The position numbers and the translations under genes are program-made. A DNA stretch of 59,195 bases, from the NCBI GenBank assembly GCA_000991645.1, contig LBRX01000003.1, positions 1-59,195 on the forward strand, written 5' to 3'. The first letter of the stretch is position 1. Each line of letters opens with the position of its first letter. The notes beneath the pieces are model-generated. The model ran no database searches and was not told the origin of the DNA. It saw nothing but the letters and a program-made list of their open reading frames with translations. Source of the stretch: Candidatus Moranbacteria bacterium GW2011_GWE2_36_40. Its GTDB lineage: Bacteria; Patescibacteriota; Minisyncoccia; Moranbacterales; GWC2-37-73. Of this stretch, positions 624-59,158 are shown piece by piece.

Positions 624-791
624 AAATTTCTAATTTCTAATTTCTAATTTCTAAACAATTTCCAACCCGCCTCGACTCGCAAAGACGATTGCTCGTCGAC
701 GCGAGGCGGGTGAATAAATTTCCAAATGTTTGAAAATTAATGAATTGAAAAATTGAAAATTAATTAAAAATTGAAAATTGTAAATTGAAAA
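624..791. repeat. composite intergenic module: (ATTTCTAA)x4, a GC-rich hairpin, then a GAAAATT array
   Basis: 625-655 is atttctaa x4. 666-710 is cccgcctcg...cgaggcggg with inner stem gacga/tcgtc. 713-790 holds GAAAATT-type repeats. The same architecture is seen at 27846-27992 and 57302-57437. Confidence 0.8.
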
Positions 792-1187: not shown

Positions 1188-4034
1188 TTATCTTCTAATT
1201 GCACCATCTCTAGCTGCCTGCATAAAACGAACAACCCATTTGCCAACAAGTTCACCTTTTTTCGGAGGCACAAGTTCTCCGTAAGCTCTCATGGTAGCAC
1301 GAGCATTTTGTGACAAAGATCCCAATTCTGGACTCCCTTCTGGTATCAACATTCTGACAGCCTCTAATTTTTCAATCCTATTCCATTCTAGAATATCTTT
1401 ATCTGAAAATGCTTTCAGCACATTTCTAAGCATTCTGCCATAACTTCCATCTGGGTTGCTGCTTATTTCAGCCAAATTCTTTTTTGCTCCTTCCAGTGCA
1501 TTTCGTAAAACTTTTTCATCGACACCATTTGAATCCAAAACACCACTATCTCCAGTTGCATTCAAAACATCGCCATATTGTTTTTCGATCTGCTCAACTG
1601 TTGCATTTTGATTTTCCAAAACTTCGCCATTCCATGGCGCATTTTCCGCTGCCTCTGACGAAATTGTAGGTAGAACATTTGAAGTAATTTCTGGTCCAGC
1701 GTTTCCTATTTCTTGCCCAGCAGTTAAAATACTATTATGCGCACCAACAGAGTGATGCCCATCTAAATGTGAAATTTTCCCACTAATATCTTTCAATTCA
1801 AATTTCAATGGATTATGTTCATCAATAATCATAGTTGTCCCAGGTTTCACATTAACCATTCCATCCTTAAGCATTTTAGCATATTCATTATCACCAACTT
1901 TTGCTATAATTTGATCCTTATTATCATGCATATAATCCAACCACATACGATGTGCAGCAGCCCCAGGATTTTTCATTTCTGGATGGATCTTTCTAATATG
2001 ATCAATTAATGTTTTTTCAATACTTGAACCTTTTTCAATCGTCAAAGATTCAGCTGCTTTCTTTGAAACATTAGCAACCACTTCAGCTGAATTTGTTCCA
2101 GGTACAACATCCTGAGCTGAAACTGGAGGCTTCCCGCCAGCCGCATATTTCTCGTAATCAATAGGCTTTAATCCTGATGAAGTTGTGTCAGCATTGTTCC
2201 CAACTGAAAAATCATGTTTTTGAGAATTCGTTGCATGTTCTATTGCATCACTATAACCAAATATTCCTGCAACCTTATGGAATCCTGTTTTTATAAGATC
2301 ACCAGCTATACCAGAAGCAAGAAATGTTCCGACCATTACACCAGTAGCCAATTGACGCACATCTTGATTTTTTATTTTATCAATAGTATTTTCTTCATCT
2401 TTTATGGTAACATTTTTTATACTGTCAGATAAGAAAGCATACTTCTCCTCATTATTCATTCCTGCCAATTTTTCTATAAACAATACTCTATCATTTTCAA
2501 CATTGGCTTTATCTTTTTTCTTGCCAATTTTTTCAAGTCCAAGAGTAACACCAACCCCCGTAATCATCCCCATAATAACCCTTCTTGCTGTTGCTGCTGT
2601 TGCTACTGCAGCCACAGCGCCAGCACCAATTTGTCCAGCTGTCAAAGCTGCCCCGGCAAAAACAATACCTATTGCAATTTTTTTAGAAATTGGCAGAGAT
2701 TTATACTTATCAGAAATTTGCTGCATTTTTTGACCAACAAAAGCCCTGGTTTTTCCATCTTGTTGTTCAATTTTTGTTTGATCATGTTCTTCAGCTAATT
2801 TTATTTTCTGTTCAGTCCTAAATTCAGCATAAAGACTAACCAATTCATCATCAGATACGCCACGCTCCCTAGCATCCTCAATTAACAGATTTTGCAAATC
2901 GAAAAGTTTATTATCATAATGTGCTCTATACCAAGCAATGTCTTGATCATTTTCAAGATTTTTTTCACGTTCTGCTTTCCCAATGTTACCAAAAAACTTA
3001 CCGAGCCTATTCCAAGCTTTATTTTTTTTATAATCAGTTTCTAAATATTCTTTTCGAGAAACATCTAATTCTTGTCTAAGATTTTTTATAGCCTCTACTC
3101 TTTCCTTGATTATCTCATCTTTTGCACTGCCATGTTCTTCATTTTCTGCACCACGCCCCTCATTACGTTCACCCTCTTCTTGTTTTTTTTGATTATCGCT
3201 ATCTTGATCTTGATTTTTTTCATTATCACCATCATGACTATTATCATTCGCATTTTCATTTGTATTTTCCTGCTCACCTTGTTTTCCATCATTTTTCATC
3301 TTCTCTTCCTCAGTTTTTTCTGAAGCATCCGCTGTTTTCTCCTCTGTTTCTTCTTCGGCTTTTTTACTCGATTCATCTTCAGTATCCCCTTCAGCCTTTC
3401 CGCCTGGTTTTTTACTATTCCAAAATGCCTCTTCGGCAGCCCAGGCTGAAGTTATATCGCTCTTAATATTTGCACCCAATCTTATTTGCTCTTTTTCGCG
3501 ATTTCCCTGACTTTTAGAAAAATTTGGCTTGCTAATCCTGTCGACAGCCTCAGCATATAATAAATCCAAAATCAAACGCGCATTAGAAGCAATTTTATTA
3601 ATTTCAACAGGAAATGGATGACTAGTTAAATGCGAATTATATTTATCTGGATTATATTCCGATGAAAACCTGAGCCAGCTTCTTTTAAGCGCTTTAAGCT
3701 GAGTTTTAATATCCTTTGTCTTATCAGGAGCTCCAAATATCTCATTTGGATGATTTGCAACAATAATTCTATTATAAAAAGAGAATAATTTTTCTATATG
3801 TTCATGTCTTTTTATTTTTTCTTTTTCATTGCGATCCTTTTCTGCTTCATCTTCAGCATCAGCTTTCTCTTTTGCCTCCGATTCTTCCCTGGCTTTTCTT
3901 TCAGCATCTGATTCAGCGCTTTTTTTGGCACCACCTTTAGTGGCCTCTTCAAATTCATCATTATCAAAAGCAGCATCAGCAGATGCTTTCATATCCTCAT
4001 GTACATCATTCCAATTTGGATCCTGCTCGAACAT
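1188..4034 (-). CDS. large hypothetical membrane-associated protein (948 aa)
   Basis: Uninterrupted 2.8-kb ORF with an acidic low-complexity N-terminus. It has a J-domain-like stretch (..LKRSWLRFSSEYNPDKYNSH..) that lacks the His of HPD. Two Gly/Ala-rich hydrophobic segments are present (AIGIVFAGAALTAGQIGAGAVAAVA.., LATGVMVGTFLASGIAG). Confidence 0.6.
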   Translation of the reverse strand: MFEQDPNWNDVHEDMKASADAAFDNDEFEEATKGGAKKSAESDAERKAREESEAKEKADAEDEAEKDRNEKEKIKRHEHIEKLFSFYNRIIVANHPNEIFGAPDKTKDIKTQLKALKRSWLRFSSEYNPDKYNSHLTSHPFPVEINKIASNARLILDLLYAEAVDRISKPNFSKSQGNREKEQIRLGANIKSDITSAWAAEEAFWNSKKPGGKAEGDTEDESSKKAEEETEEKTADASEKTEEEKMKNDGKQGEQENTNENANDNSHDGDNEKNQDQDSDNQKKQEEGERNEGRGAENEEHGSAKDEIIKERVEAIKNLRQELDVSRKEYLETDYKKNKAWNRLGKFFGNIGKAEREKNLENDQDIAWYRAHYDNKLFDLQNLLIEDARERGVSDDELVSLYAEFRTEQKIKLAEEHDQTKIEQQDGKTRAFVGQKMQQISDKYKSLPISKKIAIGIVFAGAALTAGQIGAGAVAAVATAATARRVIMGMITGVGVTLGLEKIGKKKDKANVENDRVLFIEKLAGMNNEEKYAFLSDSIKNVTIKDEENTIDKIKNQDVRQLATGVMVGTFLASGIAGDLIKTGFHKVAGIFGYSDAIEHATNSQKHDFSVGNNADTTSSGLKPIDYEKYAAGGKPPVSAQDVVPGTNSAEVVANVSKKAAESLTIEKGSSIEKTLIDHIRKIHPEMKNPGAAAHRMWLDYMHDNKDQIIAKVGDNEYAKMLKDGMVNVKPGTTMIIDEHNPLKFELKDISGKISHLDGHHSVGAHNSILTAGQEIGNAGPEITSNVLPTISSEAAENAPWNGEVLENQNATVEQIEKQYGDVLNATGDSGVLDSNGVDEKVLRNALEGAKKNLAEISSNPDGSYGRMLRNVLKAFSDKDILEWNRIEKLEAVRMLIPEGSPELGSLSQNARATMRAYGELVPPKKGELVGKWVVRFMQAARDGAIRR

Positions 4035-9235: not shown

Positions 9236-11086
9236 ATGGAAAAATTTCTCAAAAAACATTACCCGTGGGTCATCCTAGTCATTATGACTTTTTTCATAAC
9301 GGTTTCTGTATTGAATGCCAAAAATGACAGTGCTACTTTTGATGAAATTGCACATATTCCTGCTGGATACAGTTATGTAACCGAACAGGATATGCGACTC
9401 AACCCGGAACATCCACCACTACTAAAAGATATGATTGGTTTGCCACTTATTTTTCTTAACTTAAACTTTGATACAACAAAACAATTTTGGAGTGGCGACG
9501 GCCTCAACAGAATATGGGATGATGGTCAATGGATTGCTGGAAAACACCTTCTCTATGAAGCTGGCAACAATCCTAACCAGATTCTTTTTTGGGCACGTAT
9601 TCCAATTATTATAATTTCAGTTTTTCTTGGTCTCTTTATCTTTATGTGGGCCAAAGAATTTGCAGGAATTCTTGGAGGATTATTTGCTCTAACATTATAT
9701 GCCTTTGACCCCAACATTTTGGGACACAACCACTATGTGACAACTGACATTGGCATTGCAGCATTCCTCACTTTTGCTTTTTATTTCTTTCTTAAATTTA
9801 TCAAGCATCCGACATGGAAAAATGCCATGATTGGAGGATTTTTTTTGGGACTCGTTAATGTGGTAAAGTTTTCATCATTGATGGCCTATCCAATTCTTGG
9901 ACTTGTTTTGCTTGGCTATCCTCTAATAAAGAAAATTTCACATGATGAAGTTGAAAATCAAAACAAATCAGTGCGAACAAAAATATTCTTTTCTTATCTC
10001 GGAAAAGGTCTTGCAGCATTTGCCATTTCCATGCTTGTTGTTTGGATTGTATATTTCTTTAATACTTTCAACATGACAAGTTGGACAATTTCCAAACAAA
10101 TAAACTTTTCATTTCCACTAAGTGATCCCAACATTCTAAGCCAAACAACCAATAGCATGTTGACAAGCCTCAATTCATCTTCGGTATTGCGACCATTTGC
10201 TGAATACATGCTTGGAGTTACCATGGTTTTCAAACGAGTAGCTGGAGGCAATGGAGCATATTATCTTGAAAATGTGTCCAGCGATGCTTCCGCCTCATAT
10301 TTCCCATTGGTTTTTATGCTTAAGGAAACTTTACCATTCTTAATGCTTATTGTTTTTTCAATCACATTTGCTTGCATAAAAATAGTTCATAATTTCAAGA
10401 TAGCATTAGAAAATAAGCATGTTATCAAAAATATCAGACACTTTCTGCAAACAGGAGTTATGCAATACATGCTATTTGGTTTTATTATTCTTTATTCATA
10501 TCTCAGCATTACTGGTAATCTAAACATTGGACTCAGACATTTGTTTCCAATTATGCCACTCTTGTATTTATTGATAACAAAAAAAGTCTTTGATTTTCTC
10601 CGAGGCAAACACCACATAACAAAAAAACAAATACATATAATTCTTTTTGCATTACTTGCTTGGATCATTCTTATTCCAATTGTTAATTATCCAAATTATG
10701 TTTCATATTTCAATGAAACAATTGGTGGATCAAAAAATGGATACAAATATGTCACAGATTCAAACACTGACTGGGGTCAAGACTTGGGACGTCTAAAGAT
10801 TTTTCTAGATAAAAATCCTCAAATCGACAAAATTCATGTTGATTATTTTGGTGGTGGAAGACCGGAACAGGTGCTTAGAGAAAAATATATTCAATGGTGG
10901 GATTCAATGAGACCCATTGAAGCAGGATGGTATGCCATTTCAGTCAACTCATTGCAAACCAGCATTTACGACAAGACCAATAAAAATACAAGCAATAACT
11001 ATGCTTGGACGCAAAATTATAAACCAGTGACTATTATTGGAAATTCAATATTGATTTATTACATTCCAACTTCTCACTCAAACTAA
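9236..11086 (+). CDS. GT39/ArnT-like membrane glycosyltransferase, second paralog
   Basis: Multi-TM protein with ..DSATFDEIAHIPAGYSY.. after TM1. In tandem with the previous gene. Confidence 0.7.
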   Translation: MEKFLKKHYPWVILVIMTFFITVSVLNAKNDSATFDEIAHIPAGYSYVTEQDMRLNPEHPPLLKDMIGLPLIFLNLNFDTTKQFWSGDGLNRIWDDGQWIAGKHLLYEAGNNPNQILFWARIPIIIISVFLGLFIFMWAKEFAGILGGLFALTLYAFDPNILGHNHYVTTDIGIAAFLTFAFYFFLKFIKHPTWKNAMIGGFFLGLVNVVKFSSLMAYPILGLVLLGYPLIKKISHDEVENQNKSVRTKIFFSYLGKGLAAFAISMLVVWIVYFFNTFNMTSWTISKQINFSFPLSDPNILSQTTNSMLTSLNSSSVLRPFAEYMLGVTMVFKRVAGGNGAYYLENVSSDASASYFPLVFMLKETLPFLMLIVFSITFACIKIVHNFKIALENKHVIKNIRHFLQTGVMQYMLFGFIILYSYLSITGNLNIGLRHLFPIMPLLYLLITKKVFDFLRGKHHITKKQIHIILFALLAWIILIPIVNYPNYVSYFNETIGGSKNGYKYVTDSNTDWGQDLGRLKIFLDKNPQIDKIHVDYFGGGRPEQVLREKYIQWWDSMRPIEAGWYAISVNSLQTSIYDKTNKNTSNNYAWTQNYKPVTIIGNSILIYYIPTSHSN

Positions 11087-11087
11087 C

Positions 11088-11147
11088 AAATTTGCACAAT
11101 ATAAAAAAAGTATCAGTAATGATACTTTTTTTATATTGTGCAAATTT
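11088..11147. terminator. bidirectional terminator, 28-bp perfect inverted repeat
   Basis: aaatttgcacaatataaaaaaagtatca gtaa tgatactttttttatattgtgcaaattt, between convergent genes. Confidence 0.75.
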
Positions 11148-11164
11148 CTGTATTATGACAAGTT

Positions 11165-11701
11165 TTATTTTTTTTGATAAATACGATGACGATGTTCAAT
11201 ATATACAACTCTCCATCCCCACAGACCAAGCCAAACTCCAAATATTAATCCTGACAAAAATATGGCAACATATGCAGATGGCAATAAAAACAAGTGCATG
11301 CCAAGAAATTGATGAGTTGGCGGAAATAATCCTGTCTTAAGACTATTTTCAATATAAATTTTTTCCAAAATTCCAAGCAGGAATCCAGCAGACAAAATTC
11401 CAACCAGCAACGACAACAGCATGTATGCAATTCTTTTGATGTCAACTCGTATCTCCTTACGTCCAAGCTTTACCAAATAATCAATAACAGTCTTTTTATT
11501 GCCAGGCAATTTTGAAGCAGCAATAGTTTTTGCTTTTTTGATTGTTGTTTCTTTCTTTTTTTGAGTAGTTGCAAGCTTTGTTTTTTTCACAACCCTTTTA
11601 ACAGCTGATACTGTGTGGACACTTGATTTAATATTTTTTATTTTAACAGGCTTTGCTCTTACTTCTACTTGTTTTTTTAGACCTTCTTTTTTTGTTTTCA
11701 T
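11165..11701 (-). CDS. hypothetical Lys-rich membrane protein (178 aa from ATG 11701)
   Basis: Basic N-terminal half and three hydrophobic C-terminal segments. The track ORF extends to 11770, but the first 23 aa lie in low-complexity sequence. Confidence 0.5.
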   Translation of the reverse strand: MKTKKEGLKKQVEVRAKPVKIKNIKSSVHTVSAVKRVVKKTKLATTQKKKETTIKKAKTIAASKLPGNKKTVIDYLVKLGRKEIRVDIKRIAYMLLSLLVGILSAGFLLGILEKIYIENSLKTGLFPPTHQFLGMHLFLLPSAYVAIFLSGLIFGVWLGLWGWRVVYIEHRHRIYQKK

Positions 11702-11791
11702 ATTTATTATTTTTTTATACTCAAAGTATAACACATTTTTAAAAAAAAGAAACCTTTCGCTTAAAAACATGCGGCACGCACAAAAATAGAT

Positions 11792-15334: not shown

Positions 15335-16568
15335 ATTTCAAAAGTACTTCCGCAATTTCCCTTGCACATTTGTCCCAACTGAACCTTTTCACGTTCTCCA
15401 GACCTTTCTGTATTATAGCATTTTTTAAGCTTTCGTCCGAGATGAGCTTAAAAATGTTTTCGGCAATGTCTTGAGGGTCTTGGGGATTGACCAATAGGGC
15501 AGAATATTGCTCCCCACCCTCATCCGCCCCGATTGCTATCGGGGCACCTTCTCCCGGAGAGAGAAGGTGTTTTGAATGGACTATTTCAGGCACTGACGAG
15601 TTATCGGAAGCCACAACAGCACAACCAACACTTTGCGCTTCTAGAACAGGAATTCCAAAACCTTCATACAAGGTTGGGAAAACAAAAACATCAGCTTTTT
15701 TTAATAATTCCCACTTTTCTTCTTCGGATATAAAACCTAGTTCAGCAATATCTTCCTTGTATTTGGAATTTGTAATTTGTAGTTTGATATTTTCATATCC
15801 GTGCCCCGGTTTTCCAGCCAATACCAACTTATGTGAAATATTATATTTCTCCTTCAAAATTTCAAAAGCTTTAATAATATTGGAAATATTTTTCCGTTCT
15901 TCAATGCGACCAATGAATAAAAGAAATTTTGAATTTTGAATTTTGAATTTTGAATAAATTTCTAATGTTTTAATTTTCGAAATTTTTTCATTCTGATTTG
16001 ATTCGAAATTGGAAATTGGAAATTGGAAATTATCATATCCCTCATATATAACACGCACTTTATCTTCTTTTACATTGTACAATCTAACTAAGTCTAACTT
16101 TGTATTTTCAGATACAGATATGATAGTTTTTGCCCACTGACATGATTTCTTAATCGTTCCGCGCATATAAACACGATCCCACCAAGAATAAGATTTTTTA
16201 CAAAATTCATATTCTAACCCATGAATAACTACAACAGTATTTTTAGAGTGAACAACTGGCACAGTATGAGCAGGCACAAAAAGAACATCAACTGGGTGTA
16301 ATAACATTTCCAAGGATAAGCCAAGCTGCGTCCAAAATCTAGGAAATTTAATCACCTTTATTCGCCAACTTTTTGGCAATTCCAAATCATTAATTTTAAC
16401 AACTCCGTTGTAAGTTGTAAGTTGTAAGTTGTAAGTTTTTTTAACATACAAAACAACCTGATGATCCTTTAATTTATCACGCAGGTTTTTGATGACTTGA
16501 TATGAATATTCTTCAATTCCAGTTCTGTTTTCTATAAAAGCCCGAGAGCCATCAATACCAATTTTCAT
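15333..16568 (-). CDS. GT4-family glycosyltransferase with three in-frame repeat insertions
   Basis: ..LFIGRIEERKN.. and ..FPTLYEGFGIPVLEAQSVGCAVVAS.. are GT4 signatures. Insertions lie at 15510-15568 (GC palindromes), 15927-16031 (AT-rich element) and 16407-16437 (gttgtaa x4). Confidence 0.8.
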   Translation of the reverse strand: MKIGIDGSRAFIENRTGIEEYSYQVIKNLRDKLKDHQVVLYVKKTYNLQLTTYNGVVKINDLELPKSWRIKVIKFPRFWTQLGLSLEMLLHPVDVLFVPAHTVPVVHSKNTVVVIHGLEYEFCKKSYSWWDRVYMRGTIKKSCQWAKTIISVSENTKLDLVRLYNVKEDKVRVIYEGYDNFQFPISNFESNQNEKISKIKTLEIYSKFKIQNSKFLLFIGRIEERKNISNIIKAFEILKEKYNISHKLVLAGKPGHGYENIKLQITNSKYKEDIAELGFISEEEKWELLKKADVFVFPTLYEGFGIPVLEAQSVGCAVVASDNSSVPEIVHSKHLLSPGEGAPIAIGADEGGEQYSALLVNPQDPQDIAENIFKLISDESLKNAIIQKGLENVKRFSWDKCAREIAEVLLK

Positions 16569-17822: not shown

Positions 17823-17852
17823 CTCAGCCAAAGGCTGATCAGCCTTTGGCTG
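17823..17852. repeat. perfect GC-rich palindrome
   Basis: tcagccaaaggctga|tcagcctttggctga, followed by AT-rich short-period repeats to about 17950. Confidence 0.8.
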
Positions 17853-17954
17853 AAATTCCAATTCTTCGTATAAACATTTATTTAAAAAGAATTTTGAATT
17901 TCGAATCAATTCCTAATTACAAATTTTTAATTACAAATTTCTAAAGTTGAGTAT

Positions 17955-18075
17955 TGTATCATTCCCGTGAAAACGGGAATCCAGACCCGACGCAAATTAA
18001 CACTACATTTCCTGAAATAATAAATTATATTGAGATAAAGACGGGCTGGATTCCGGGTCTTCGCCCGGAATGACA
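17955..18075. mobile_element. MITE-like element with hairpin-containing terminal inverted repeats, copy 1
   Basis: Left end is tcattcccgtgaaaacgggaatccagaccc. Right end is gggctggattccgggtcttcgcccggaatgaca. The ends are reverse complements of each other. Confidence 0.65.
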
Positions 18076-18081
18076 AACGGC

Positions 18082-18924: not shown

Positions 18925-19041
18925 TGTCATTCCCAGCTTGACTGGGAATCCAGCCCCATTCAATATCAACGATTTAATAAATAAACACGTAACCTGGATT
19001 CCCCCTCCAAAGGCGGGCAAGCTGTTTTCACGGGAATGACA
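18925..19041. mobile_element. MITE-like element, copy 2
   Basis: Left end is tgtcattcccagcttgactgggaatccagcccc. Right end is ctggattccc..cacgggaatgaca. Same TIR family as 17955-18075. Confidence 0.6.
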
Positions 19042-21950: not shown

Positions 21951-22079
21951 GAAACTTCTTCGCGGGAACGCAGGCCGTCGCTGGCGTCGTCGGAATGGTA
22001 CCAATTGACGTTCATCTTGTCGTCATTGAAATTCACGTTCGGAACGTTGCCATCGGAGTTGCGAGAGCCAGCATTTTGT
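21951..22079 (-). repeat. DGR1 template repeat (TR1)
   Basis: Aligns base for base with 22467-22595. The 123-nt core has 17 mismatches, all at plus-strand T (adenine on the coding/minus strand) in this copy. Extending by 6 nt adds 4 more of the same kind. TR codons at the variable sites are mostly AAC/AAT. Confidence 0.9.
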
Positions 22080-22284
22080 CTGATTCTTTCCGTATCACCG
22101 ACAATTTTTTACAAAATTATCTGAGTTTTTCTGACTCACAGTCAGATTTTTTTATGAAGCATTGTTTTTCAACAAATCTTCGTTAAAATCAGACAAGCAG
22201 TTTCAAAAAACTACTTGGCAAATCGCTACCCAATTTTATTTTATAAAAAATATAATCAGACCGATTGTATTAGCCAATTTGTAT

Positions 22285-22318
22285 TATACACTTTCCGTCG
22301 ACCGACAGAAAGTGTATA
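22285..22318. repeat. 34-bp palindrome shared by both DGR loci
   Basis: tatacactttccgtcgaccgacagaaagtgtata. Differs at 2 positions from the perfect copy at 33633-33666. Confidence 0.85.
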
Positions 22319-22399
22319 AGTTTTAATCAGCCATATAAAAAACAAAAAAATACCAGTAATCAAAACCACCAGCTAAAGCTGGTGGATTATTTATGTATA

Positions 22400-22462: not shown

Positions 22463-23203
22463 TTAAGAAACTACTTCGCGGGAACGCAGGCCGCCGCTGG
22501 CGCCGTCGGAACGGTACCAATCGACGTCCATCCTGTCGCCATCGAAAACCACGCGCGGAACGAGGCCATCGGAGCGGCGAGAGCCAGCACAAAGTGTGAC
22601 ATTTTTGATGTCGAGATGATTGCCTGTTTCATTAAAAAACTTTAGTTCATGAATCAAGCGCTCAGCCAACGTCTCAGTCTTTACGCCTTTTTCTTGGATA
22701 TCATCAGCAGAAAGATTTTTCAAATTTTCATCTGCCTCCTGAACATCCTTGACCCAAATAGCACGCACGCCATCTTTTGCGTTGCGCTCATTCCAGGTAA
22801 CTTTCTTGTCTAGATCATCATTTGTCCAACGCCAGCATGGAAACAACTCTTTGCATTTTGCGTAAAGCTGCTCAAGTGAAAGATCTTCAATGATAAGCAG
22901 CCGCCACTCACCCTCAGGTTTTTCCGGGATTCTAACATTTGAATAGTCACAAAAACCACCAAATGTTTTCCGATAAAAATCCTGCCAGTCAATAATAATA
23001 TCTAACTGAACATCTGCGAATTGTGTCTTCGCAAATGGATTGCGATGTTCCACCAGTGCCTGCAAATGATCCAGCGTCAGACCTTTGCCAGGATTTTTCA
23101 TCCCCAATAAAAGCTGTCTCCAAATTTCTGCTGAAATCTTTGCAAACTTTTCAAACCAGCTCGGCATCAGATCCGAACTTCCAACCATTTTTACTTTTTT
23201 CAT
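22463..23203 (-). CDS. DGR1 variable target protein (246 aa, no signal peptide)
   Basis: The C-terminal 43 codons are VR1 (..LCAGSRRSDGLVPRVVFDGDRMDVDWYRSDGASGGLRSREVVS*). The N-terminal domain carries no motif I recognise. Confidence 0.85.
   Translation of the reverse strand: MKKVKMVGSSDLMPSWFEKFAKISAEIWRQLLLGMKNPGKGLTLDHLQALVEHRNPFAKTQFADVQLDIIIDWQDFYRKTFGGFCDYSNVRIPEKPEGEWRLLIIEDLSLEQLYAKCKELFPCWRWTNDDLDKKVTWNERNAKDGVRAIWVKDVQEADENLKNLSADDIQEKGVKTETLAERLIHELKFFNETGNHLDIKNVTLCAGSRRSDGLVPRVVFDGDRMDVDWYRSDGASGGLRSREVVS
22467..22595 (-). repeat. DGR1 variable repeat (VR1)
   Basis: 3' end of the target ORF, adjacent to the TAA stop at 22463-22465. See TR1 for the alignment. Confidence 0.9.
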
Positions 23204-27845: not shown

Positions 27846-27992
27846 AAAATAAAAAATTTCGAATTTCGAATTTCGAATTTCGAAACAAATCCTAATGACC
27901 AAATTCTTAGTCCGCCAGCTGGCGGAAAAAATTAGAACATTAAAAATTCATTTCAAATTAAAAATTTTAAATTAAAAATTTTAAAAAACTAA

Positions 27993-29695: not shown

Positions 29696-29979
29696 CTTAT
29701 TTTGTATTTTGTATATAATGTGATATTATTAAATCATTAAAATATCTTGCAAAACCCAATGGCCTTGTCCCTGGGGGATGGAGATAAAATAAGCATATGA
29801 ACAAGATTTATTTTTCAATATATTAATATCTGCATTTTATAGCCCACTATTTATAGTGAGGTTTTTTAATTTCTAATTTCCAATTCCTAATTTCTAAACA
29901 ATTTTCAATGACACAATTTCAAAATTTAAAAATTGATTCATTGTTTGAAAATTGAAAATTGAAAATTGAAAATTTTCCC

Positions 29980-32900
29980 ATGAAGTATACTCATCTCCAC
30001 GTCCATTCTCACTATAGTCTTCTTGATGGTCTCGGCAAAGTCGACGATCTGATTGATCGCGCCTTGGAATTAGGGATGGATTCGATTGCACTTACTGATC
30101 ACGGCGTTATGTATGGTGCGGTGGAACTTTTTATCAAAGCAAAGGAGAAAGGAATCAAGGCAATCATTGGTTGTGAAATGTATGTGACAGCTGGCGATTA
30201 TACCTCAAAAGACGCGACCGCTGAAAATCGCAAGAGGTATCACCTAATTTTGCTAGTAAAAAATGAAGAAGGATATCACAACCTCATGAAACTTGTTTCC
30301 CTGGCGCATTTGGATGGGTTTTATTATAAGCCAAGAATTAATAGAAAACTTCTGAGAAAATATGCCAAAGGTTTAATTGGTTTATCTGCCTGCACAGAAG
30401 GAGAAATTCCCGCTCAAATTATCATGGGAAATTATGACAAAGCTAAAGAATTAGCTTTGGAATACAAAGATATTTTTGATGAAGGAGGTTTTTTTCTGGA
30501 AGTTCAAGATCATAAAAAATATCCCAGCCAAGCAATCGCCAATGAGGGAATTTTCAAGTTAGCCAAAGAAATTGACCTGCCGGTGGTTGCCACTTGCGAC
30601 GTTCATTACGTTAACAAGGAAGATGCCAGTGCTCAAGATATTTTACTTTGCGTACAAACTAACCGTAAAGTATATGAGTCTGATCGTATGAATCTGATGG
30701 ATTTTGATTTATCTTTGCGTAGTCCTGAAGAAGTTTTGGCAGGCTTTCCTGACAATCCAGAAGTGCTTTCCAACACACAACTTGTCGTTGACCAATGCGA
30801 TTTCAAAATAAAAATGGGAGAAACACAACTTCCCCATTTTGATGTGCCAGAGGGAAAAACAGACATGTCATATCTGATTGAACTTTGCGAAAAAGGTCTC
30901 AAGAAAAAATATGGCGAAAATATCACAGAAATTCATCGCACACGTATGGACTACGAACTTTCTGTTATTGAAAAATGCGGATATGGATCATATTTCTTAA
31001 TTGTACAGGATTTCGTTAACTGGGCACGTGCCAATGGAATCGTGGTGGGTCCGGGACGCGGAAGCGCGGCTGGCAGTTTTGTTTCATATTTAACTGGAAT
31101 TACCAATGTTGATCCAATTGAATATAACTTACTTTTTGAACGATTTCTTAATCCAGAACGTGTCTCAATGCCCGATGTTGATATGGATTTTGCCGACGAC
31201 AGAAGAGAAGATGTTTTAAATTATGTTCGTCAAAAATATGGCAACGATCATGTTTCACAAATAATTACTTTTGGAACTATGGCAGCCCGCGCCGCAATTC
31301 GAGACACCGGCAGAGCGTTAGGAATTCCCTATGATTTTTGCAACAAAACTTCTCAAATGATTCCGATGTTTACTTCGATTAAAAAAGCATTAGAAGAAGT
31401 TCCAGAATTTAAAGACCATTACAATTCCTCTGAAGATGCTCGGAAGCTCATCGACAGCGCAATGCGATTAGAAGGCGTCATTAGACATGCTGGAATGCAT
31501 GCTTGTGGAGTTGTGATTACCAAAGAACCCGTGACGTATTATTCCCCTATTCAAAACATTACTGGATCGCGAGAAGGCACCGTAACGCAATATTCTTCTT
31601 CAACCAAATCTTCTTACGTAGAAAAAATTGGATTATTAAAGATGGACTTTTTGGGATTAAAAAATCTTACCATTATTCAAAATACTCTGCGAATTGTTAA
31701 AAAAACCAAGGGTATCGATATCGATATCGACACCATTCCGATTGATGATTTAAAGACCTACGAACTTTTGCAAGAAGCACGAACTACCGGAGTTTTTCAA
31801 TTAGAAAGTTCTGGCATGAAACGTTACCTCAAGATGCTAAAACCAACGGTTATCGAAGATATCATCGCGATGGTAGCACTCTATCGTCCTGGGCCAATGG
31901 ATTGGATTCCTGATTTTATTTCCGGCAAACATGGACGAAAAATAAAATATGTTCATCCAAAACTTGAACCAATTTTGAAAAATACTTATGGCGTAGCTGT
32001 CTATCAAGAACAGGTTATGCAAATTGCTCGCGACTTGGCAGGATTTACCATGGGTGAAGCTGATGTGCTGAGAAAAGCAATGGGAAAGAAAATTTTTGAA
32101 TTAATTAAGGAGCAAAAAATAAAATTCGTTGAGGGCTGCGTGGCTAATGGCAGCACAAAAGAAATAGCAGAAAAAGTTTTTTCTTTTATTGAACCTTTTG
32201 CTGGATACGGTTTTAACAGAAGTCATGCTGCTTGTTATGCAATCATTGGATATCAAACAGCTTATCTTAAAGCTCATTATCCAGCGGCTTTCATGGCAGC
32301 ACTGCAAACATCTGATCAAGATAACATTGATCGCATCGCCATTGAAGCTGCTGAATGCCACGACATGGGCATTCAAGTTCTTGCGCCAAATGTTAATGAA
32401 AGTTTTGAAGATTTCGCAGTAATCACAGATACTGGCGGAACAGAAAAAATTCGATTTGGATTTAATGCAATTAAAAATGTTGGTCATGTCATAGCACATG
32501 AAATTGTGGCAGAAAGAAAACGTGGAGGAAAATTCAAATCATTGGGAGATTTTTTGGAACGCGTAGAAACAAAAGATCTCAACAAAAAATCTATCGATGC
32601 GTTGGCAAAAGTTGGTGCACTCGATGAACTTGGAGAACGAAATCAAATCGTGGAAAGCATGGAGCAAATTTTAATGTTCACAAAAAGTGTACAAAAATCA
32701 AAAAATTCAAACCAAGTAAGTTTATTTGGAGAAGCCATCCTGGAAACACCACAAGTCCCACTGCTTGAAGTTGAGCCAGCCTCAAAAAGACAACAACTAA
32801 AATGGGAAAAAGAGTTGCTTGGTCTTTATGTAAGTGGACATCCCGTTAAAGAATACCAATCCTATATTGATAAGGTGGCCGTTTCACTGGACAAATTAAC

Positions 32901-33522
32901 TCCAGAATTGGTTGGACAAAAAATTGCTGTCGGTGGAGTAATTCAAAAAATTCAAAAAATTCTAACCAAGCGCCAGGAAACCATGCTTTTTGTGATGCTT
33001 GAAGACACCAAAGGAAAAATAGAAGTCTTGGTTTTTCCAAAAGTGTTGGAACGAATTGGAAGTGTTTGGGAAGAAGAAAGAATGATTATTGCAGAAGGCA
33101 GACTTTCTGATAAAGATGGTGTTTACAAATTAATTGTCGACGAAGCCAAGGAACTCAATCGCGGTGAGATTGAAAATTATTTGCGAGTGGAAGCTACAAA
33201 AAAAACTTACGGAGTTAGAGATGATAACGACAAAAATAAACCGCCTTCTCAAGCTGGAGACAGCGGAAATCAACAAACAATTAACAACGATTCACCAGAA
33301 CAATCAACCAGAAAATTAGTAATTACCTTACCCAAAAATGCCACGCCGGAAATAATCCACAATTTATCAAAATTTTTCAACACTTGTGCTATTGGACCCT
33401 GCAAAGTATTTTTGCATCATCAAGAAAACAAGCTTGAAACACCTTTTTCCATTAAGCATAGTCCGACACTTTTAGATGAAATCAAAACAATCGTAAACGG
33501 CGGAAACGCAGAGCTGGCTTAA
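29980..33522 (+). CDS. dnaE: DNA polymerase III alpha subunit
   Basis: PHP motif MKYTHLHVHSHYSLLDG, ..PGRGSAAGSFVSY.., ..MPDVDMDF... The first 7 codons of the track ORF (from 29959) lie inside the gaaaatt array, so ATG 29980 is preferred. Confidence 0.95.
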   Translation: MKYTHLHVHSHYSLLDGLGKVDDLIDRALELGMDSIALTDHGVMYGAVELFIKAKEKGIKAIIGCEMYVTAGDYTSKDATAENRKRYHLILLVKNEEGYHNLMKLVSLAHLDGFYYKPRINRKLLRKYAKGLIGLSACTEGEIPAQIIMGNYDKAKELALEYKDIFDEGGFFLEVQDHKKYPSQAIANEGIFKLAKEIDLPVVATCDVHYVNKEDASAQDILLCVQTNRKVYESDRMNLMDFDLSLRSPEEVLAGFPDNPEVLSNTQLVVDQCDFKIKMGETQLPHFDVPEGKTDMSYLIELCEKGLKKKYGENITEIHRTRMDYELSVIEKCGYGSYFLIVQDFVNWARANGIVVGPGRGSAAGSFVSYLTGITNVDPIEYNLLFERFLNPERVSMPDVDMDFADDRREDVLNYVRQKYGNDHVSQIITFGTMAARAAIRDTGRALGIPYDFCNKTSQMIPMFTSIKKALEEVPEFKDHYNSSEDARKLIDSAMRLEGVIRHAGMHACGVVITKEPVTYYSPIQNITGSREGTVTQYSSSTKSSYVEKIGLLKMDFLGLKNLTIIQNTLRIVKKTKGIDIDIDTIPIDDLKTYELLQEARTTGVFQLESSGMKRYLKMLKPTVIEDIIAMVALYRPGPMDWIPDFISGKHGRKIKYVHPKLEPILKNTYGVAVYQEQVMQIARDLAGFTMGEADVLRKAMGKKIFELIKEQKIKFVEGCVANGSTKEIAEKVFSFIEPFAGYGFNRSHAACYAIIGYQTAYLKAHYPAAFMAALQTSDQDNIDRIAIEAAECHDMGIQVLAPNVNESFEDFAVITDTGGTEKIRFGFNAIKNVGHVIAHEIVAERKRGGKFKSLGDFLERVETKDLNKKSIDALAKVGALDELGERNQIVESMEQILMFTKSVQKSKNSNQVSLFGEAILETPQVPLLEVEPASKRQQLKWEKELLGLYVSGHPVKEYQSYIDKVAVSLDKLTPELVGQKIAVGGVIQKIQKILTKRQETMLFVMLEDTKGKIEVLVFPKVLERIGSVWEEERMIIAEGRLSDKDGVYKLIVDEAKELNRGEIENYLRVEATKKTYGVRDDNDKNKPPSQAGDSGNQQTINNDSPEQSTRKLVITLPKNATPEIIHNLSKFFNTCAIGPCKVFLHHQENKLETPFSIKHSPTLLDEIKTIVNGGNAELA

Positions 33523-33631: not shown

Positions 33632-34701
33632 TTATACACTTTCCGTCGGCCGACGGAAAGTGTATATTTTTTCAATTTGTTTTTGAATATTGTGACCCTT
33701 GCAATGCTTTAGAATTCCCAAATAAGATTGCAGACTTTGATTAAGCTTTTTCTCTGAAATTAAACCCTCTTGGAAATCAGCATATTTCTTACCTAGCTTT
33801 TTAAACATCCTTCTTTTTGTGTTTGTCCGCAAAACTGAGTGATGCGGTCTCAAAACATATCCTAAGAAATCTATGCCTTGATGAAATTTATCAATTGAAA
33901 CCTTGCTTGGATGTAGCTGCAATTTCAATTCTTTTTCCAAAAATTCATCTATCAAATTTAAAATATCATTAAGATATGCCTCATCTTGGTGTATAATAAT
34001 AAAATCATCTGCATAACGAAAATAATTTTTCGCTTTAATTTTTCTTTTTATGAACCAGTCCAATTCATTGAGATATATATTAGCAAATATCTGCGACGTT
34101 ATATTACCAATTGGCACACCTCGTTTTTCTTCAAAAAATTCATCCCGTAAGACCCCCCCACCACGGAAACATCCTCGGAGGAAAAGCTAAGGATAATTTC
34201 TTCGACTAGTCGCATAAATTTCTCATCTGCAATCTTACACGCAATCAATTGCAAAAGTTTTCTTTGATTTATGCTGGCAAAGAATTTTTTGATGTCACAT
34301 TTTAGTGCAAAAACCGGTCGAGTAAAATTTCTACTTTCCCTGCGCAAACATTTTAAAAGATTTTTGACTGCAAGATGTGTTCCCTTGTTTTTTCTTGATG
34401 AATAAGCATGAAAAATGAAATGTGGATCAAAAATATCATTCAGCTTCTCAAACACCAAATGTTGCACGATACGATCTCTTACTGTCGCCTTACTTATAAT
34501 TCTGTGCCTCGGATCATGAATATGAAAAATTTCATATTCTCCATGTTGATATGATTGATTCTCAAGCTCTTCTTGCAAAAGAAAAAGATTATCCTCCAAA
34601 AATCTTTCAAAAATTTGCACGTCTCGCCTGCCGTGTTTTCCATTTCTAAATTCTTTCCAAGATTGAAAAATGTTTTCAAGACTAATCAATTCATCATACA
34701 T
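33632..34701 (-). CDS. DGR-type reverse transcriptase, split into two ORFs by a frameshift at a G7 run
   Basis: ..VPIGNITSQIFANIYLNELD.. and ..YFRYADDFIIIH... The ORFs 34099-34701 and 33632-34117 join as ..DVSVVGGGVLRDEFFEEKRGVPIGN.. if the C7 run at 34153-34159 (plus strand) were C8. Confidence 0.85.
33633..33666. repeat. perfect 34-bp palindrome overlapping the RT2 stop codon
   Basis: tatacactttccgtcgg|ccgacggaaagtgtata. It encodes the last 11 codons of RT2 (..IYTFRRPTESV*). Second copy at 22285-22318. Confidence 0.9.
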
Positions 34702-37348: not shown

Positions 37349-39163
37349 ATGACTAATGTAACCAGAAAAAATATGAAATCAGAAATCAACAAACTCGAAC
37401 TAATCCGTCATTCAACTGCACATATCCTAGCAGCCGCTGTTTTAGAAATGTTTCCAGAGGCAAAATTCGGAATTGGACCTGCCGTGGAAAATGGATTTTA
37501 CTATGACTTTGAACTTCCACGCACACTTATCCCTGAAGATTTGCCACTCTTGGAAGAAAAGATGAAAGAAATCATCAAAGCAAACCATGCTTTTGAAAAA
37601 GCTGAGGTTTCAATTGATGATGCCATGGAAAAATTCAAGCAGCTTGATCAGACTTTAAAATTGGAACTCATTGATGATCTTCATAAGGCTGGAAATGAAA
37701 CTGTAACGATTTATAAATCTGGACATTTTGTTGATCTCTGCACCGGACCACACATCGAATCAACTGGCAAAATTCAACACAATGCTTTTGCGCTAACAAA
37801 AATTTCTGGAGCATATTGGAAAGCAGACGCCACCAAGCAACAACTGCAAAGAATTTACGGAGTGGTGTTTGAAAATAAAGAAGGACTCAAAAACTATTTT
37901 CATCTCGTTGATGAGGCTGCCAAAAGAGATCATCGCAAGCTTGGGAAAGAATTGGATCTGTTTTGCTTTTCAGATTTGGTTGGACCGGGACTTCCCCTCT
38001 TCACACCAAACGGAACAATCATCAAGGATGAGTTGCAAAAACATATTGAAAAAGTTTGCCGAGGATATGGTTTTCAAAAAGTTTCAACTCCTCATCTTGC
38101 TAAAATTGATTTATATGAAAAATCAGGACATGCTCAAAAATTTGGAGATGAACTTTTCCAAGTAGCATCACATTACAAACAAAATTATGTGATGAAGCCA
38201 GTGCAATGTCCTCATCAAACTCAAATTTTTGCTTCCAAAGCTCGCTCCTATCGAGACCTTCCTATTCGCTATATGGAAAGTGAAAAACAATATCGCGATG
38301 AAAAACCAGGAGAAATTGGAGGTCTTCAACGCGTAATTGCAATCACGGTTGAAGACGGTCACAGTTTTTGCACCATTGATCAAGTGAAGCAAGAAGTGAA
38401 AAACATGATAGAAATTATCCAAAATTTTTATACATCACTTGGCATGTGGGAAAACCACAGTGTTTCACTTTCAGTACGAGATTACGCACATCCAGAAAAA
38501 TACATTGGCGAAACTACTGATTGGGATGTCTGCGAGAAAATGCTGCAAGATATTTCAGATGAGATGGGATTAAATGCGATCAAACACGAGGGAGAAGCTG
38601 CACTTTATGGACCAAAACTTGATTTCATGTTTCGCGATTCTCTTGGCAAAGAAATTCAAATTCCAACAGTGCAATTGGATTTTGCTACTCCAAAGAGATT
38701 TGAGTTGGAATATACCAATAACGAAGGAGGAAAATCCTCTCCTGTTATGGTGCATCGAGCAATTTTAGGATCATATGAAAGATTTATGATGCTCCTTATT
38801 GAACACTTTGCCGGAGCCTTTCCTCTTTGGCTCTCCCCTGTTCAAGTTGCCATTTTACCAATTTCTGAAAAATTTGCAGACTACGCTGAAGAAGTTAAAA
38901 ACAAATTATCAGAAAATGATATCCGCGTAGAACTTAGCGACAAAGCTGAATCACTTGGAAAAAGAATTTCTGAAGCAGAAAAAATGAAAACTCCATACAT
39001 CATTGTGGTTGGAGAAAAAGAAGTTAATGATAAAACAGTAGCCATCAGAACTCGCGGAATAAAGGAGCCCGCCTCCACAGAGCTTCGTCGAGGCGAGCAA
39101 CAAACAATGCCAATTGACGAATTTGTTAATAAGATTTCTTTCGAAATAAAAAACAAAATCTAA
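37349..39163 (+). CDS. thrS: threonine--tRNA ligase (no TGS domain; start could be Met-9 at 37373)
   Basis: ..RHSTAHILAAAV.. editing-domain-type motif, class II core (..FRDE.., ..GLQRV..), and a C-terminal anticodon-binding domain. In-frame GC hairpin insertion at 39067-39098. Confidence 0.93.
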   Translation: MTNVTRKNMKSEINKLELIRHSTAHILAAAVLEMFPEAKFGIGPAVENGFYYDFELPRTLIPEDLPLLEEKMKEIIKANHAFEKAEVSIDDAMEKFKQLDQTLKLELIDDLHKAGNETVTIYKSGHFVDLCTGPHIESTGKIQHNAFALTKISGAYWKADATKQQLQRIYGVVFENKEGLKNYFHLVDEAAKRDHRKLGKELDLFCFSDLVGPGLPLFTPNGTIIKDELQKHIEKVCRGYGFQKVSTPHLAKIDLYEKSGHAQKFGDELFQVASHYKQNYVMKPVQCPHQTQIFASKARSYRDLPIRYMESEKQYRDEKPGEIGGLQRVIAITVEDGHSFCTIDQVKQEVKNMIEIIQNFYTSLGMWENHSVSLSVRDYAHPEKYIGETTDWDVCEKMLQDISDEMGLNAIKHEGEAALYGPKLDFMFRDSLGKEIQIPTVQLDFATPKRFELEYTNNEGGKSSPVMVHRAILGSYERFMMLLIEHFAGAFPLWLSPVQVAILPISEKFADYAEEVKNKLSENDIRVELSDKAESLGKRISEAEKMKTPYIIVVGEKEVNDKTVAIRTRGIKEPASTELRRGEQQTMPIDEFVNKISFEIKNKI

Positions 39164-53076: not shown

Positions 53077-53182
53077 GTTGTATGCAAATTTTCCTAACAA
53101 GCCGAGCTCTGACCTCACTGTCCCGATTCCGTATCGGGACATCTCTCCTTATCAAAGGAGAGAACGATATTGAAGAAATTTA

Positions 53183-57301: not shown

Positions 57302-57437
57302 AATTTTTAATTTCCAATTTTGAATTTTGAATGAATTCCTGCCTGCCAGAGGCAGGTTTAATGATTCAATTTTTTAATGTTTGAAACATTATGTCATTCA
57401 GATTTGATTCGAAATTCGAAATTCAGAATTCAAAATT
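57302..57437. repeat. AT-rich MITE-like intergenic element, copy C, carrying a nested 19-nt GC hairpin
   Basis: Colinear with 13607-13718, except that cctgcctgccagaggcagg is inserted inside the tgaatt|ttt run. Confidence 0.85.
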
Positions 57438-58342: not shown

Positions 58343-59158
58343 TCACTCCTGCAATGCGTCAAGTGGTTTGAAAAAGGCGCACTTTTTTCCAACAAACAAA
58401 ATATTTCTACCATCAATAACTTCACATTTTTCCATTCTAAACCCCGCATTTTCAAAAAGTTTTTTTAGTTCTCTTTTTGTGAAAGCTCGGTGAAATCGCT
58501 GAATTTTTTCACCCTCATTATTTGTAAAAGATATATAACAATCATTCCAATCCAACACACTTTTCCCTTTCAATTTGCTAAGCCAATTATGCAAAATATT
58601 TTTAAAATATTTTTTTTGCTTGCCTCGTCGAATCCACCAGCTGGCGGAGAAGGCGGGCCATAGATACCAAACTGTCACCACAATGTACCCACCATCTTTC
58701 ATGGTTCGATAAAGCTCTTTGGCCACATCTTGGCGATATTTTTTTGAGGGAAAATGATGAAAAACAGCAATACTATAGATGGTATTGAAAAATCCGTCTT
58801 CAGATGGTAGACTTGTTTGACTAGGATTTATTTTGGCAAAGCATGGCCCGACGGAGTCCGACTCCGAATCGGAGTCGGACTCCGTAACTTCTACGACTTG
58901 ATACTTATTTTTGGCAATTTCAACCAATTTTTCCGAAACATCCAAGCCCCAATAATTAATATTTTTAGAATTAAGCAATTCCAAAAGGCGACCATTACCA
59001 CAACCATAATCCAAAACATTATCATTTTCGTGCGTATAATCTCTTATAAACTCCAAGCCACGCCAAAAATGTTTCCTGGTCTCAGAAAATTTCTTGGAAA
59101 TCAGATCATAACCTGCCTCCGTCTCAGTCAATATTTTATTTGCAGTTTCATTGTTCAT
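58343..59158 (-). CDS. class I SAM-dependent methyltransferase with two in-frame GC palindromes
   Basis: ..VLDYGCGNGRLLE.. motif I. A perfect 35-nt palindrome at 58851-58885 encodes ..TESDSDSESDSV... ccaccagctggcgg at 58634-58647 encodes ..SASWW... Confidence 0.8.
   Translation of the reverse strand: MNNETANKILTETEAGYDLISKKFSETRKHFWRGLEFIRDYTHENDNVLDYGCGNGRLLELLNSKNINYWGLDVSEKLVEIAKNKYQVVEVTESDSDSESDSVGPCFAKINPSQTSLPSEDGFFNTIYSIAVFHHFPSKKYRQDVAKELYRTMKDGGYIVVTVWYLWPAFSASWWIRRGKQKKYFKNILHNWLSKLKGKSVLDWNDCYISFTNNEGEKIQRFHRAFTKRELKKLFENAGFRMEKCEVIDGRNILFVGKKCAFFKPLDALQE

Follow-up and report, generated by a model that had tools for sequence, protein, structure and literature searches.

Short G+C-rich palindromes, dispersed and in frame in conserved protein genes, in a Moranbacteria contig and related genomes of the Candidate Phyla Radiation

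A stretch of 59,195 nucleotides from Candidatus Moranbacteria bacterium GW2011_GWE2_36_40 (contig LBRX01000003.1, positions 1 to 59,195; the whole stretch is called the window) contains short G+C-rich palindromes, both between genes and, without a break of the reading frame, within them. The window has a G+C content of 36%. Three of its genes carry such inserts; they code for a methyltransferase, a threonyl-tRNA synthetase (ThrRS) and a family 4 glycosyltransferase (GT4). For each of the three, the closest homologues carry the name Candidatus Moranbacteria or Parcubacteria and belong to the Patescibacteria or Candidate Phyla Radiation (CPR). An original prediction, made from the letters of the window, had interpreted the palindromes as selfish DNA similar to the Rickettsia palindromic elements (RPEs). 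In the following, L-numbers denote loci, P-numbers homologous proteins and F-numbers repeat families. The methyltransferase gene and the genic inserts are:

58343..59158, minus strand: host gene of the F1 palindrome, a class I S-adenosylmethionine (SAM) methyltransferase of 271 amino acids (Pfam Methyltransf_23/11, Trm9/ALKBH8-like)
58851..58885, in the methyltransferase open reading frame (ORF): F1 palindrome, ACGGAGTCCGACTCCGA-A-TCGGAGTCGGACTCCGT, with perfect arms of 17 bp and a centre of 1 nt
58619..58657, minus strand: methyltransferase site 2, 39 nt in frame, adding PAFSASWWIRRGK between LW and QKKY
39068..39097, plus strand: ThrRS insert of 30 nt, CCCGCCTCCACAGAGCTTCGTCGAGGCGAG, a short form of family F2, in the anticodon-binding domain
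15510..15578, minus strand: GT4 insert of 69 nt or 23 amino acids in frame, encoding HSKHLLSPGEGAPIAIGADEGGE

The F1 palindrome has exactly the sequence, the position and the encoded peptide that had been predicted for it. It consists of a 33-nt core (58852-58884) plus one further A:T pair and, read from the minus strand, encodes TESDSDSESDSV. Each arm is in turn a small hairpin, GGAGTC-C-GACTCC, and the element is therefore an inverted doublet. For comparison with random expectation, the window was shuffled 60 times with its dinucleotides preserved, and perfect stems with a loop of at most 12 nt were determined. In these shuffles, the longest stem had 9-14 bp compared to 17 bp in the F1 arms, and the window contains 17 stems of at least 10 bp, where the shuffles contain 2.0 on average.

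In 1.37 Mb of related loci that were chosen via the methyltransferase, F1 was found only in the window and in the methyltransferase gene of L007. The family became visible only through a scan of metagenome contigs with the pattern GAGTYNRACTCCGANTCGGAGTYNRACTC, which yielded 43 stretches, some of them with two copies and several on contigs from single assemblies. When the flanks are taken into account, these correspond to 39 unique matches. One of them, in L126, is a coding tract of high G+C content rich in Ser, Asp and Glu and no member of the family; it was set aside, which leaves 38 copies. Their consensus core of 33 nt, CGGAGTYSRACTCCGA-W-TCGGAGTYSRACTCCG, is made up of two inverted GGAGTyNrACTCC units with the spacer CGA-W-TCG; the centre is invariably A or T, and there is no length polymorphism. 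The arms are perfect over at least 15 bp each in 37 of the 38 copies. Position 17 pairs in half of them, and further out pairing is at chance level. At positions 8, 9, 10 and 16 from the centre, left free by the search pattern, at least two types of Watson-Crick pairs occur with essentially zero unpaired cells. The observed covariation score was not attained in any of 500 shuffles, and the pairing was lost when the partner column was slid.

The identical 33-nt sequence is present in more than 10 unrelated genes. Over half of the F1 copies fall within ORFs of at least 130 codons; many copies are in short ORFs and are probably intergenic. Hosts of in-frame copies, all confirmed by means of Pfam, are the Obg GTPase, ArgRS (two sites), the editing domain of LeuRS, RNase HII (two sites), an RsmI-like TP_methylase, Wzy_C, an AMP-binding enzyme and an IS200-like Y1_Tnp. 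One more copy was found in the N-terminal region of a ThrRS; the ThrRS of the window has no insert at this position. With 33 nt, all genic copies have a length that is a multiple of three. F1 is free of stop codons in all three reading frames. Nevertheless, all copies in ORFs of at least 200 amino acids read as E-[SF]-D-S-[ED]-S-E-S-[DN]-S, and the other two frames (RSSTPNRSRTP, GVRLRIGVELR) are confined to ORFs of at most 150 codons. We take this use of a single frame in long ORFs to mean that selection filters the copies by their peptide.

Two further properties of F1 copies are given here as separate observations. In L112:821, L124:2339 and L116:3962, the arms are lengthened to 22-24 bp by mutually complementary flanks, which vary between copies (CTTCAT..ATGAAG, GGAAAAAT..ATTTTTCC); these could be longer subfamilies or the result of palindrome growth via fold-back synthesis. 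The unit hairpins of F1 and of family F9, GGAGTTCGACTCC and GGAGGTTCGACCTCC (for example 58853-58865 of the window), resemble the T-arm consensus of tRNAs, GGTTCGAATCC, and judged by this likeness a tRNA-derived origin of the units is possible.

The insert of the methyltransferase at the F1 position (site 1) is absent from most of 120 homologues, which have 230-234 amino acids; the segment comprises 20 residues in the window and 5-7 in most of these proteins. Some orthologues contain at the same loop a Ser/Asp/Glu segment resembling that of the window, others CHSGLDPES...LDSRFHGND or HPVKS...FNR. Three palindrome families occupy this site across lineages. In a neighbour-joining tree of the 120 proteins, the Ser/Asp/Glu insert occurs in five scattered lineages, each with insert-less sisters. 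The DNA was read in four cases. The palindrome is perfect and in the same register in the window, L007 and L081, and contains one mismatch in L082; the four sequences differ by paired changes on both arms, and in all of them the insert starts four codons after a conserved Q. The peptide across the junction reads, for example, ...VEVTESDSDSESDSVGPC....

The closest relative of the methyltransferase, P0002, reads GAC ACG GAG GTA TGT TTT (L083:5247-5390) and contains no palindrome there, compared to ACG GAG, 27 nt and GTC GGG CCA TGC TTT in the window (58840-58900). This difference is either the scar of a palindrome deletion or an insertion at a CGGAG/G microhomology. Just upstream, P0002 instead contains a doublet of 84 nt, ATTCCGGA/ATTCCCGT.

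The second palindrome that had been noticed in the methyltransferase gene, ccaccagctggcgg, is present as stated and lies within the 39-nt insert of site 2. The outer termini of this insert, CCCGCCT...CGACGAGGCAAG, are F2-like, and its inner part, TCCGCCAGCTGGTGGA, belongs to family F5. In orthologues, the site is either empty (LW-QKKY) or occupied by PSFASLWRGK, PAAASLWRGK or PAST..SSTRGG-type segments; P0012 contains two segments in tandem. An AlphaFold model of the methyltransferase (mean predicted local distance difference test score, pLDDT, 87; predicted template modelling score 0.86) places both inserts in coil regions of low pLDDT, in favour of the original prediction. Insert 1 lies between helix 76-91 and strand 106-109 (pLDDT 51 for residues 91-100), insert 2 between strand 153-164 and helix 178-196 (pLDDT 57 for residues 171-180). 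Due to these positions, the modelled inserts look like loops that are tolerated on the Rossmann-fold core.

With respect to its neighbourhood, the methyltransferase gene is divergent from a radical SAM plus Radical_SAM_C (Elp3-like) gene (L081-L084; 56381-59158 in the window), and some databases call the homologues of the methyltransferase "alkB homolog 8"; L082-L084 stem from time-series groundwater metagenomes (PRJNA268031). This neighbour and this naming suggest a Trm9/Elp3-type pair for the modification of tRNA wobble uridines in CPR bacteria.

The insert in ThrRS is real and specific for certain lineages; its length is 10 amino acids (30 nt) and not about 12, as had been estimated. Its DNA, CCCGCCTCCRCAGAGCTTCGKCGAGGCGAG, stands between GAG and CAA, and the peptide can be written as PASTELRRGE or equivalently as EPASTELRRG. 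It is missing from about 110 of 120 orthologues, among them P0121 (93% identity), and present in P0122 (89% identity) and P0179 (72% identity). The empty site of L128, at 93% amino acid identity, reads AGA GAG CAA CAG. Among the window, L129 and L131, 28-29 of the 30 nt are identical, compared to about 64% of the adjacent codons in window and L131. In further lineages, other palindrome-like inserts are found at this site (EPADAKAMAGK, EPASTRKDASSTRGG), and one ThrRS cluster at 90% identity comprises both empty alleles (584, 586 and 590 amino acids) and filled ones (596 and 604 amino acids). In the metagenome-assembled genome GCA_028715745.1, the GT4 insert is present and the ThrRS insert is absent.

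The GT4 insert exists as well, albeit with 69 nt and 23 amino acids and an end at 15578, instead of the end at 15568 and the roughly 24 amino acids given before. It consists of two adjacent hairpins, CACCTTCTC..GAGAAGGTG and GCCCCGAT..ATCGGGGC. The site is empty in about half of 120 orthologues and filled with very diverse segments in the remainder; three relatives with 76-77% identity contain three different palindromes. The insert of the window is shared with L132, and L133 and L134 possess different palindromes at the same site. GT4 orthologues have 356-435 amino acids and more than 10 such variable sites. In the fetched loci, the two window hairpins were not found again, except for a CCCGAT..ATCGGG hairpin at 53119-53141 with a loose similarity. 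The family status of this insert is therefore weaker and relies on the likeness of the peptides (PLP.GE.) among orthologues. In the GT4 orthologue P0244, a perfect palindrome, GTAGAGACGCAAAATTTTGCGTCTCTAC (L134:2503-2530), starts with the GTAG tag that is typical of repetitive extragenic palindromes (REPs) associated with tyrosine transposases (RAYTs). Its family has the form GTAGAGACGC...GCGTCTCTAC, and L041 contains a related GTAGAGACGCGATT-AATCGCGTCTCTAC in frame.

The alignments of orthologues thus revealed lineage-specific and patchy insertions at all four sites. Segments at the same site do occur in distant homologues (methyltransferases P0049, P0066, P0083 and P0092; ThrRS P0179), which is what the original prediction had named as the sign of ancestral loops. 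An ancestral loop is nevertheless not indicated, because the carriers are scattered among insert-less sisters, because the DNA of the insert is approximately 93-97% identical compared to approximately 64% for flanking codons, and because the same 33-nt sequence stands in all those unrelated genes.

A census of hairpins covered 1.39 Mb, namely the window and loci that had been picked via the methyltransferase and not via palindromes. It yielded 289 perfect G+C-rich hairpins with a stem of at least 8 bp, 145 of which lie inside ORFs. The anticipated picture of dispersed palindrome families, which occur between genes as well as in frame in unrelated conserved proteins, was confirmed. An Rfam search of the window identified two tRNAs only and no RNA family on the palindromes, and a search of viral contigs for the palindrome gave zero matches and hence no support for a phage as vehicle.

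Taken as a whole, it is quite probable that F1 is a short non-autonomous hairpin repeat that spreads within and between CPR genomes of the Moranbacteria/Parcubacteria type. Its core is made of two mirror-image copies of a hairpin of 13-15 nt, and its copies land throughout the genome, in intergenic as well as in genic DNA. The genic copies that survive would be those compatible with protein function, and the host proteins would gain a disordered loop of 9-13 residues and keep working. The inserts of ThrRS, of GT4 and of the second methyltransferase site represent the same phenomenon, brought about by other repeat families. Selection at few permissive loops may have led to the refilling of the same sites in different lineages. 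The arms would be perfect either because the copies were recently made from intact masters or because the hairpin served as a template for correction.

As an alternative, each site could have received one old insertion, the alleles of which were then moved between related lineages by homologous recombination or lost by precise deletion of the hairpin; nucleotide conservation and arms would have been kept by a hairpin function at the level of DNA or RNA, or by arm-to-arm correction. We regard this as possible, albeit doubtful. Palindromes are prone to deletion, and the comparison of P0002 with the window (ACG GAG GTA versus ACG GAG, 27 nt, GTC) resembles a deletion scar. The common register of the four methyltransferase DNAs and the paired changes between their variants at an orthologous site also agree with it. 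However, an old insertion leaves unexplained why the 33-nt core is found in this many unrelated genes and in intergenic DNA. It does not account either for the three palindrome families each at one methyltransferase site and at one GT4 site, or for the saturation of synonymous sites in the flanks of an insert that has been conserved to such an extent.

It is rather unlikely that the elements serve the host as functional signals, for example as terminators or attenuators, as RNase or mRNA-stability elements, or as binding sites of nucleoid or topoisomerase proteins. The last of these roles has been proposed for REP/BIME. In this case, copies in coding DNA would be tolerated by-products or regulators of translation. 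About half of the G+C-rich hairpins of the census are non-coding compared to approximately 14% of the DNA, several intergenic hairpins are located just 3' of genes, and the complementarity of the F1 arms is strongly kept, with a very stable predicted RNA hairpin (-35 kcal/mol). In contrast, presence and absence vary between orthologues of more than 90% identity and many interchangeable families occupy one site, which argues against a site-specific function. Moreover, no Rfam family is matched, and F1 does not contain the T-run of an intrinsic terminator.

Two further explanations were rejected as highly improbable. A low-complexity (S-[DE])n linker could have grown by codon slippage, with palindromy as a by-product, since (TCN GAN)n is quasi-palindromic and self-complementary at four of every six positions; the tract of L126 matches the search pattern by this route. 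However, the third-codon positions, which are free to vary, pair perfectly in 37 of 38 copies and change on both arms, identical DNA is found in the other two frames in probable non-coding DNA, and the length is fixed. Alternatively, the five GANTC sites within the 35 nt of F1 could form a cluster that serves a methyltransferase or restriction system of the HinfI/CcrM type. The window copy reads GAGTC-C-GACTC-C-GAATC-G-GAGTC-G-GACTC, and the window contains slightly fewer GANTC sites than its shuffles (179 versus 207 +/- 14). However, GAN-TCN is imposed by the D/E-S codons, and the commonest F1 variant has three sites and the L115 variant only one; the number of sites is thus not what is conserved. 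Finally, although chimeras from multiple displacement amplification can create palindromes, an assembly or amplification artefact by inverted chimeras is practically negligible, as the element stands in frame at the same gene positions in independent NCBI, ENA, JGI and Logan assemblies.

The interpretation as a spreading hairpin repeat is preferred; several points weigh against it. No transposition event was found, tblastn identified no Y1_Tnp gene in the window, and the 59 kb contain one F1 copy only. The flanks of the F1 copies revealed no target-site duplication, no conserved target motif and no flanking direct repeats, and neither a GTAG nor a CGTC tag was found at the F1 ends. Furthermore, the metagenome matches come largely from few sites or assemblies, such that the number of independent genomes is modest, and both translation of the loops and activity of the host proteins are presumed. 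The recurrence at the same site could result from few permissive loops, from allele transfer or from deletion scars, and an exchange of alleles could take the place of independent insertions.

With regard to the mode of spreading, the elements might move as single-stranded DNA hairpins with the help of a trans-acting HUH tyrosine transposase (IS200/RAYT-like Y1), a proposal we make tentatively. The enzymes of IS200/IS605 and the RAYTs act on single-stranded hairpins and do not generate target duplications, and the REPs cut by RAYTs carry GTAG/CGTC end tags (PMC3733652). Y1_Tnp (PF01797) genes are present in related loci, and six of seven examined orthologues harbour, at one site and in frame, a palindrome that is long and perfect (L091, L112, L124, L011, L039 and L044; in L044 at 2988-3038). 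These palindromes have stems of up to 25 bp and predicted energies between -35 and -54 kcal/mol. Some of them belong to F1, others to family F9, a related GGAGGYTCRACCTCC doublet, which is read as GGSTSIMEVEPP. In L044, a palindrome is also located just downstream of the Y1_Tnp gene. In L011, L039 and L044, Y1_Tnp lies directly upstream of a Trm9-like methyltransferase. A more speculative and improbable variant is that the palindrome families are the substrates of this transposase and that the enzyme and the palindrome within its own gene form a self-contained, co-evolving unit, in which the hairpin chemistry keeps the arms complementary and proteome variation is generated. If so, Y1 activity would continually write loops of 10-15 residues into essential proteins of ultra-small CPR genomes.

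We infer that the elements represent mobile DNA of a selfish, non-autonomous kind, and the label selfish relies on their distribution. The analogy to RPEs that had been drawn at the outset holds functionally and not as membership in the family, since size, tags and taxon differ. According to Ogata et al. (2000), as summarized in PMC2229807 and PMC3733652, RPEs are dispersed palindromic repeats of 105-146 bp with terminal inverted repeats of roughly 12 bp. They are specific for Rickettsia, occur in intergenic DNA and in frame in conserved proteins including housekeeping enzymes, and have no demonstrated transposase; the short RPE-4 and RPE-6 bear a CGTC end tag. Judged by these descriptions, a small AT-rich genome, dispersed palindromes with intergenic copies and in-frame copies in conserved protein genes are common to both. 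In contrast, the elements described here have 30-45 nt, F1 is a perfect hairpin doublet and contains no CGTC, F2 (30-45 nt) contains CGTC only internally, and the host belongs to the Patescibacteria instead of Rickettsia, which sets the elements apart from RPEs as described; a relationship in sequence is not to be expected.

REPs are G+C-rich stem-loops of 20-40 nt, which often form inverted doublets (REPIN) and occur as several families per genome; occasional intragenic copies lie in frame in replication and repair genes, and different REPs are reported at about one recB site in Xanthomonas (PMC3733652; PMC3116915; PMC3337134). As to function, the elements of the window resemble these intragenic REPs of Di Nocera et al. 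(PMC3733652), and their doublet form is reminiscent of REPINs (PMC3116915). Short G+C-rich palindromes arranged as inverted doublets are likewise found in F1, F3 and F9, and related loci contain IS200-like Y1 transposase genes as do REP genomes. However, F1 has neither the GTAG tag that is cleaved by the E. coli RAYT nor loop mismatches, and the GTAG end is seen only in the other family at the GT4 site of L134. REPs are predominantly extragenic, whereas half of the hairpins of the census (145/289) are inside ORFs, and the Y1_Tnp genes seen here carry the repeat in frame and appear not to be flanked by it as at RAYT loci.

[quoted passage not shown] ERIC/IRU, the 107-bp form of Correia and YPAL are MITEs with stop-free frames that are fused in frame to host genes (Delihas, PMC2229807). 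The elements of the window are comparable as small non-autonomous repeats with stop-free frames fused into host genes; they differ in that F1 comprises 33 nt, no such terminal repeats exist and no target duplication was seen. In mitochondrial genes of Nematomorpha, perfect inverted repeats of up to 284 bp have been described within coding sequence (PMC6649704). There, too, both arms are translated; these palindromes are, however, mitochondrial and of animal origin and, as far as described, not shown to be a dispersed family of short repeats.

No account of such elements in CPR/Patescibacteria was found in the literature searched, which excludes most subscription journals. The palindromic elements are described here for the CPR; their kind as such is already known from Rickettsia and from REPs. 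The genomes of CPR/Patescibacteria have about 1 Mb and are regarded as highly streamlined. The window and its relatives nevertheless carry several hairpin-repeat families in essential genes, including those of aminoacyl-tRNA synthetases, Obg, RNase HII and tRNA/rRNA methyltransferases. Should such insertions be general, they would account for much of the length variation of CPR proteins and for peptides of the CHSGLDPES / LDSRFHGND / GGSTS..EVEPP type, and such inserts should be masked in annotation, alignment and phylogenomics. Moreover, the CPR would then constitute, after Rickettsia, a second independent natural system for studying the tolerance of proteins to random loops and the seeding of new functions, and the co-varying perfect arms together with the link to Y1 transposase genes would offer a testable handle on the movement of REP-like elements.

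The intergenic hairpins that had been noticed at 666-710, 22366-22385, 27911-27926 and 57337-57355 are all present. The members of further families between the genes of the window are:

666..710, intergenic: F2 in its full length of 45 nt, CCCGCCTCG...CGAGGCGGG
17824..17853, intergenic: F3, perfect palindrome of 30 nt, a doublet of TCAGCC-AAA-GGCTGA with the doublet architecture of F1
17955..18080, intergenic: F4, two inverted ATTCCsG..CsGGAAT hairpins (17961-18071), with a third one at 18929-18949
27911..27926, intergenic: F5, TCCGCCAGCTGGCGGA
57337..57355, intergenic: F6, CCTGCCTGCC..GGCAGG hairpin

The family resemblance that had been assumed for the palindromes exists in part: common termini link the element at 666-710 with the ThrRS insert and with site 2 of the methyltransferase, and 27911-27926 fits the inner part of site 2, whereas the 35-nt palindrome forms a separate family. 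The long form of F2 (42-45 nt, CCCGCCTCGACTCGCGGAGACG..CGTCGACGCGAGGCGGG) occurs in many loci and elsewhere lies in frame in ORFs of 220-633 amino acids, where it is read as PASTRGDDRSSTRGG and in other frames. The families of the hairpins at 17824-17853, 17961-18071, 18929-18949 and 57337-57355 also exist in other genomes, partly in frame. Copies of F3 are found in L005, L083 and L084 and as a PPKADQPLAG insert in a GT4 orthologue. F4, which reads in frame as CHSGLDPES / LDSRFHGND, has 23 matches, distributed over 15 loci; ORFs of at least 150 amino acids contain 11 of these matches. In-frame copies of the F5 14-mer are found in L001, L003 and L011; in the methyltransferase of the window, it is likewise in frame and forms the inner part of site 2. 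F6 has 21 matches in 11 loci; seven of these are inside long ORFs and are read as LPAGRQ.

Three other sequence features of the window were observed. A perfect A+T-rich hairpin at 11088-11147, with a loop of 4 nt and a stem of 28 bp that far exceeds any stem of the shuffles, lies between the convergent ORFs 9236..11086 (plus strand) and 11165..11770 (minus strand) and is probably a bidirectional terminator. Another palindrome, TATACACTTTCCGTCG(G/A)CCGAC(G/A)GAAAGTGTATA, is present in two copies 11 kb apart (22284-22319 and 33633-33666) and has no match in 1.4 Mb of related loci. The second copy, located between a dnaE-like ORF (29959..33522, plus strand) and the ORF 33632..34117 (minus strand), is perfect, with arms of 17 bp and no loop. 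Finally, a G+C-rich stretch in the ORF 22463..23203 (minus strand), at 22471-22594, is partly repeated in the same orientation at a distance of about 516 nt (21955-22002), which may be due to the partial duplication of a gene or represent a fragment of a pseudogene.

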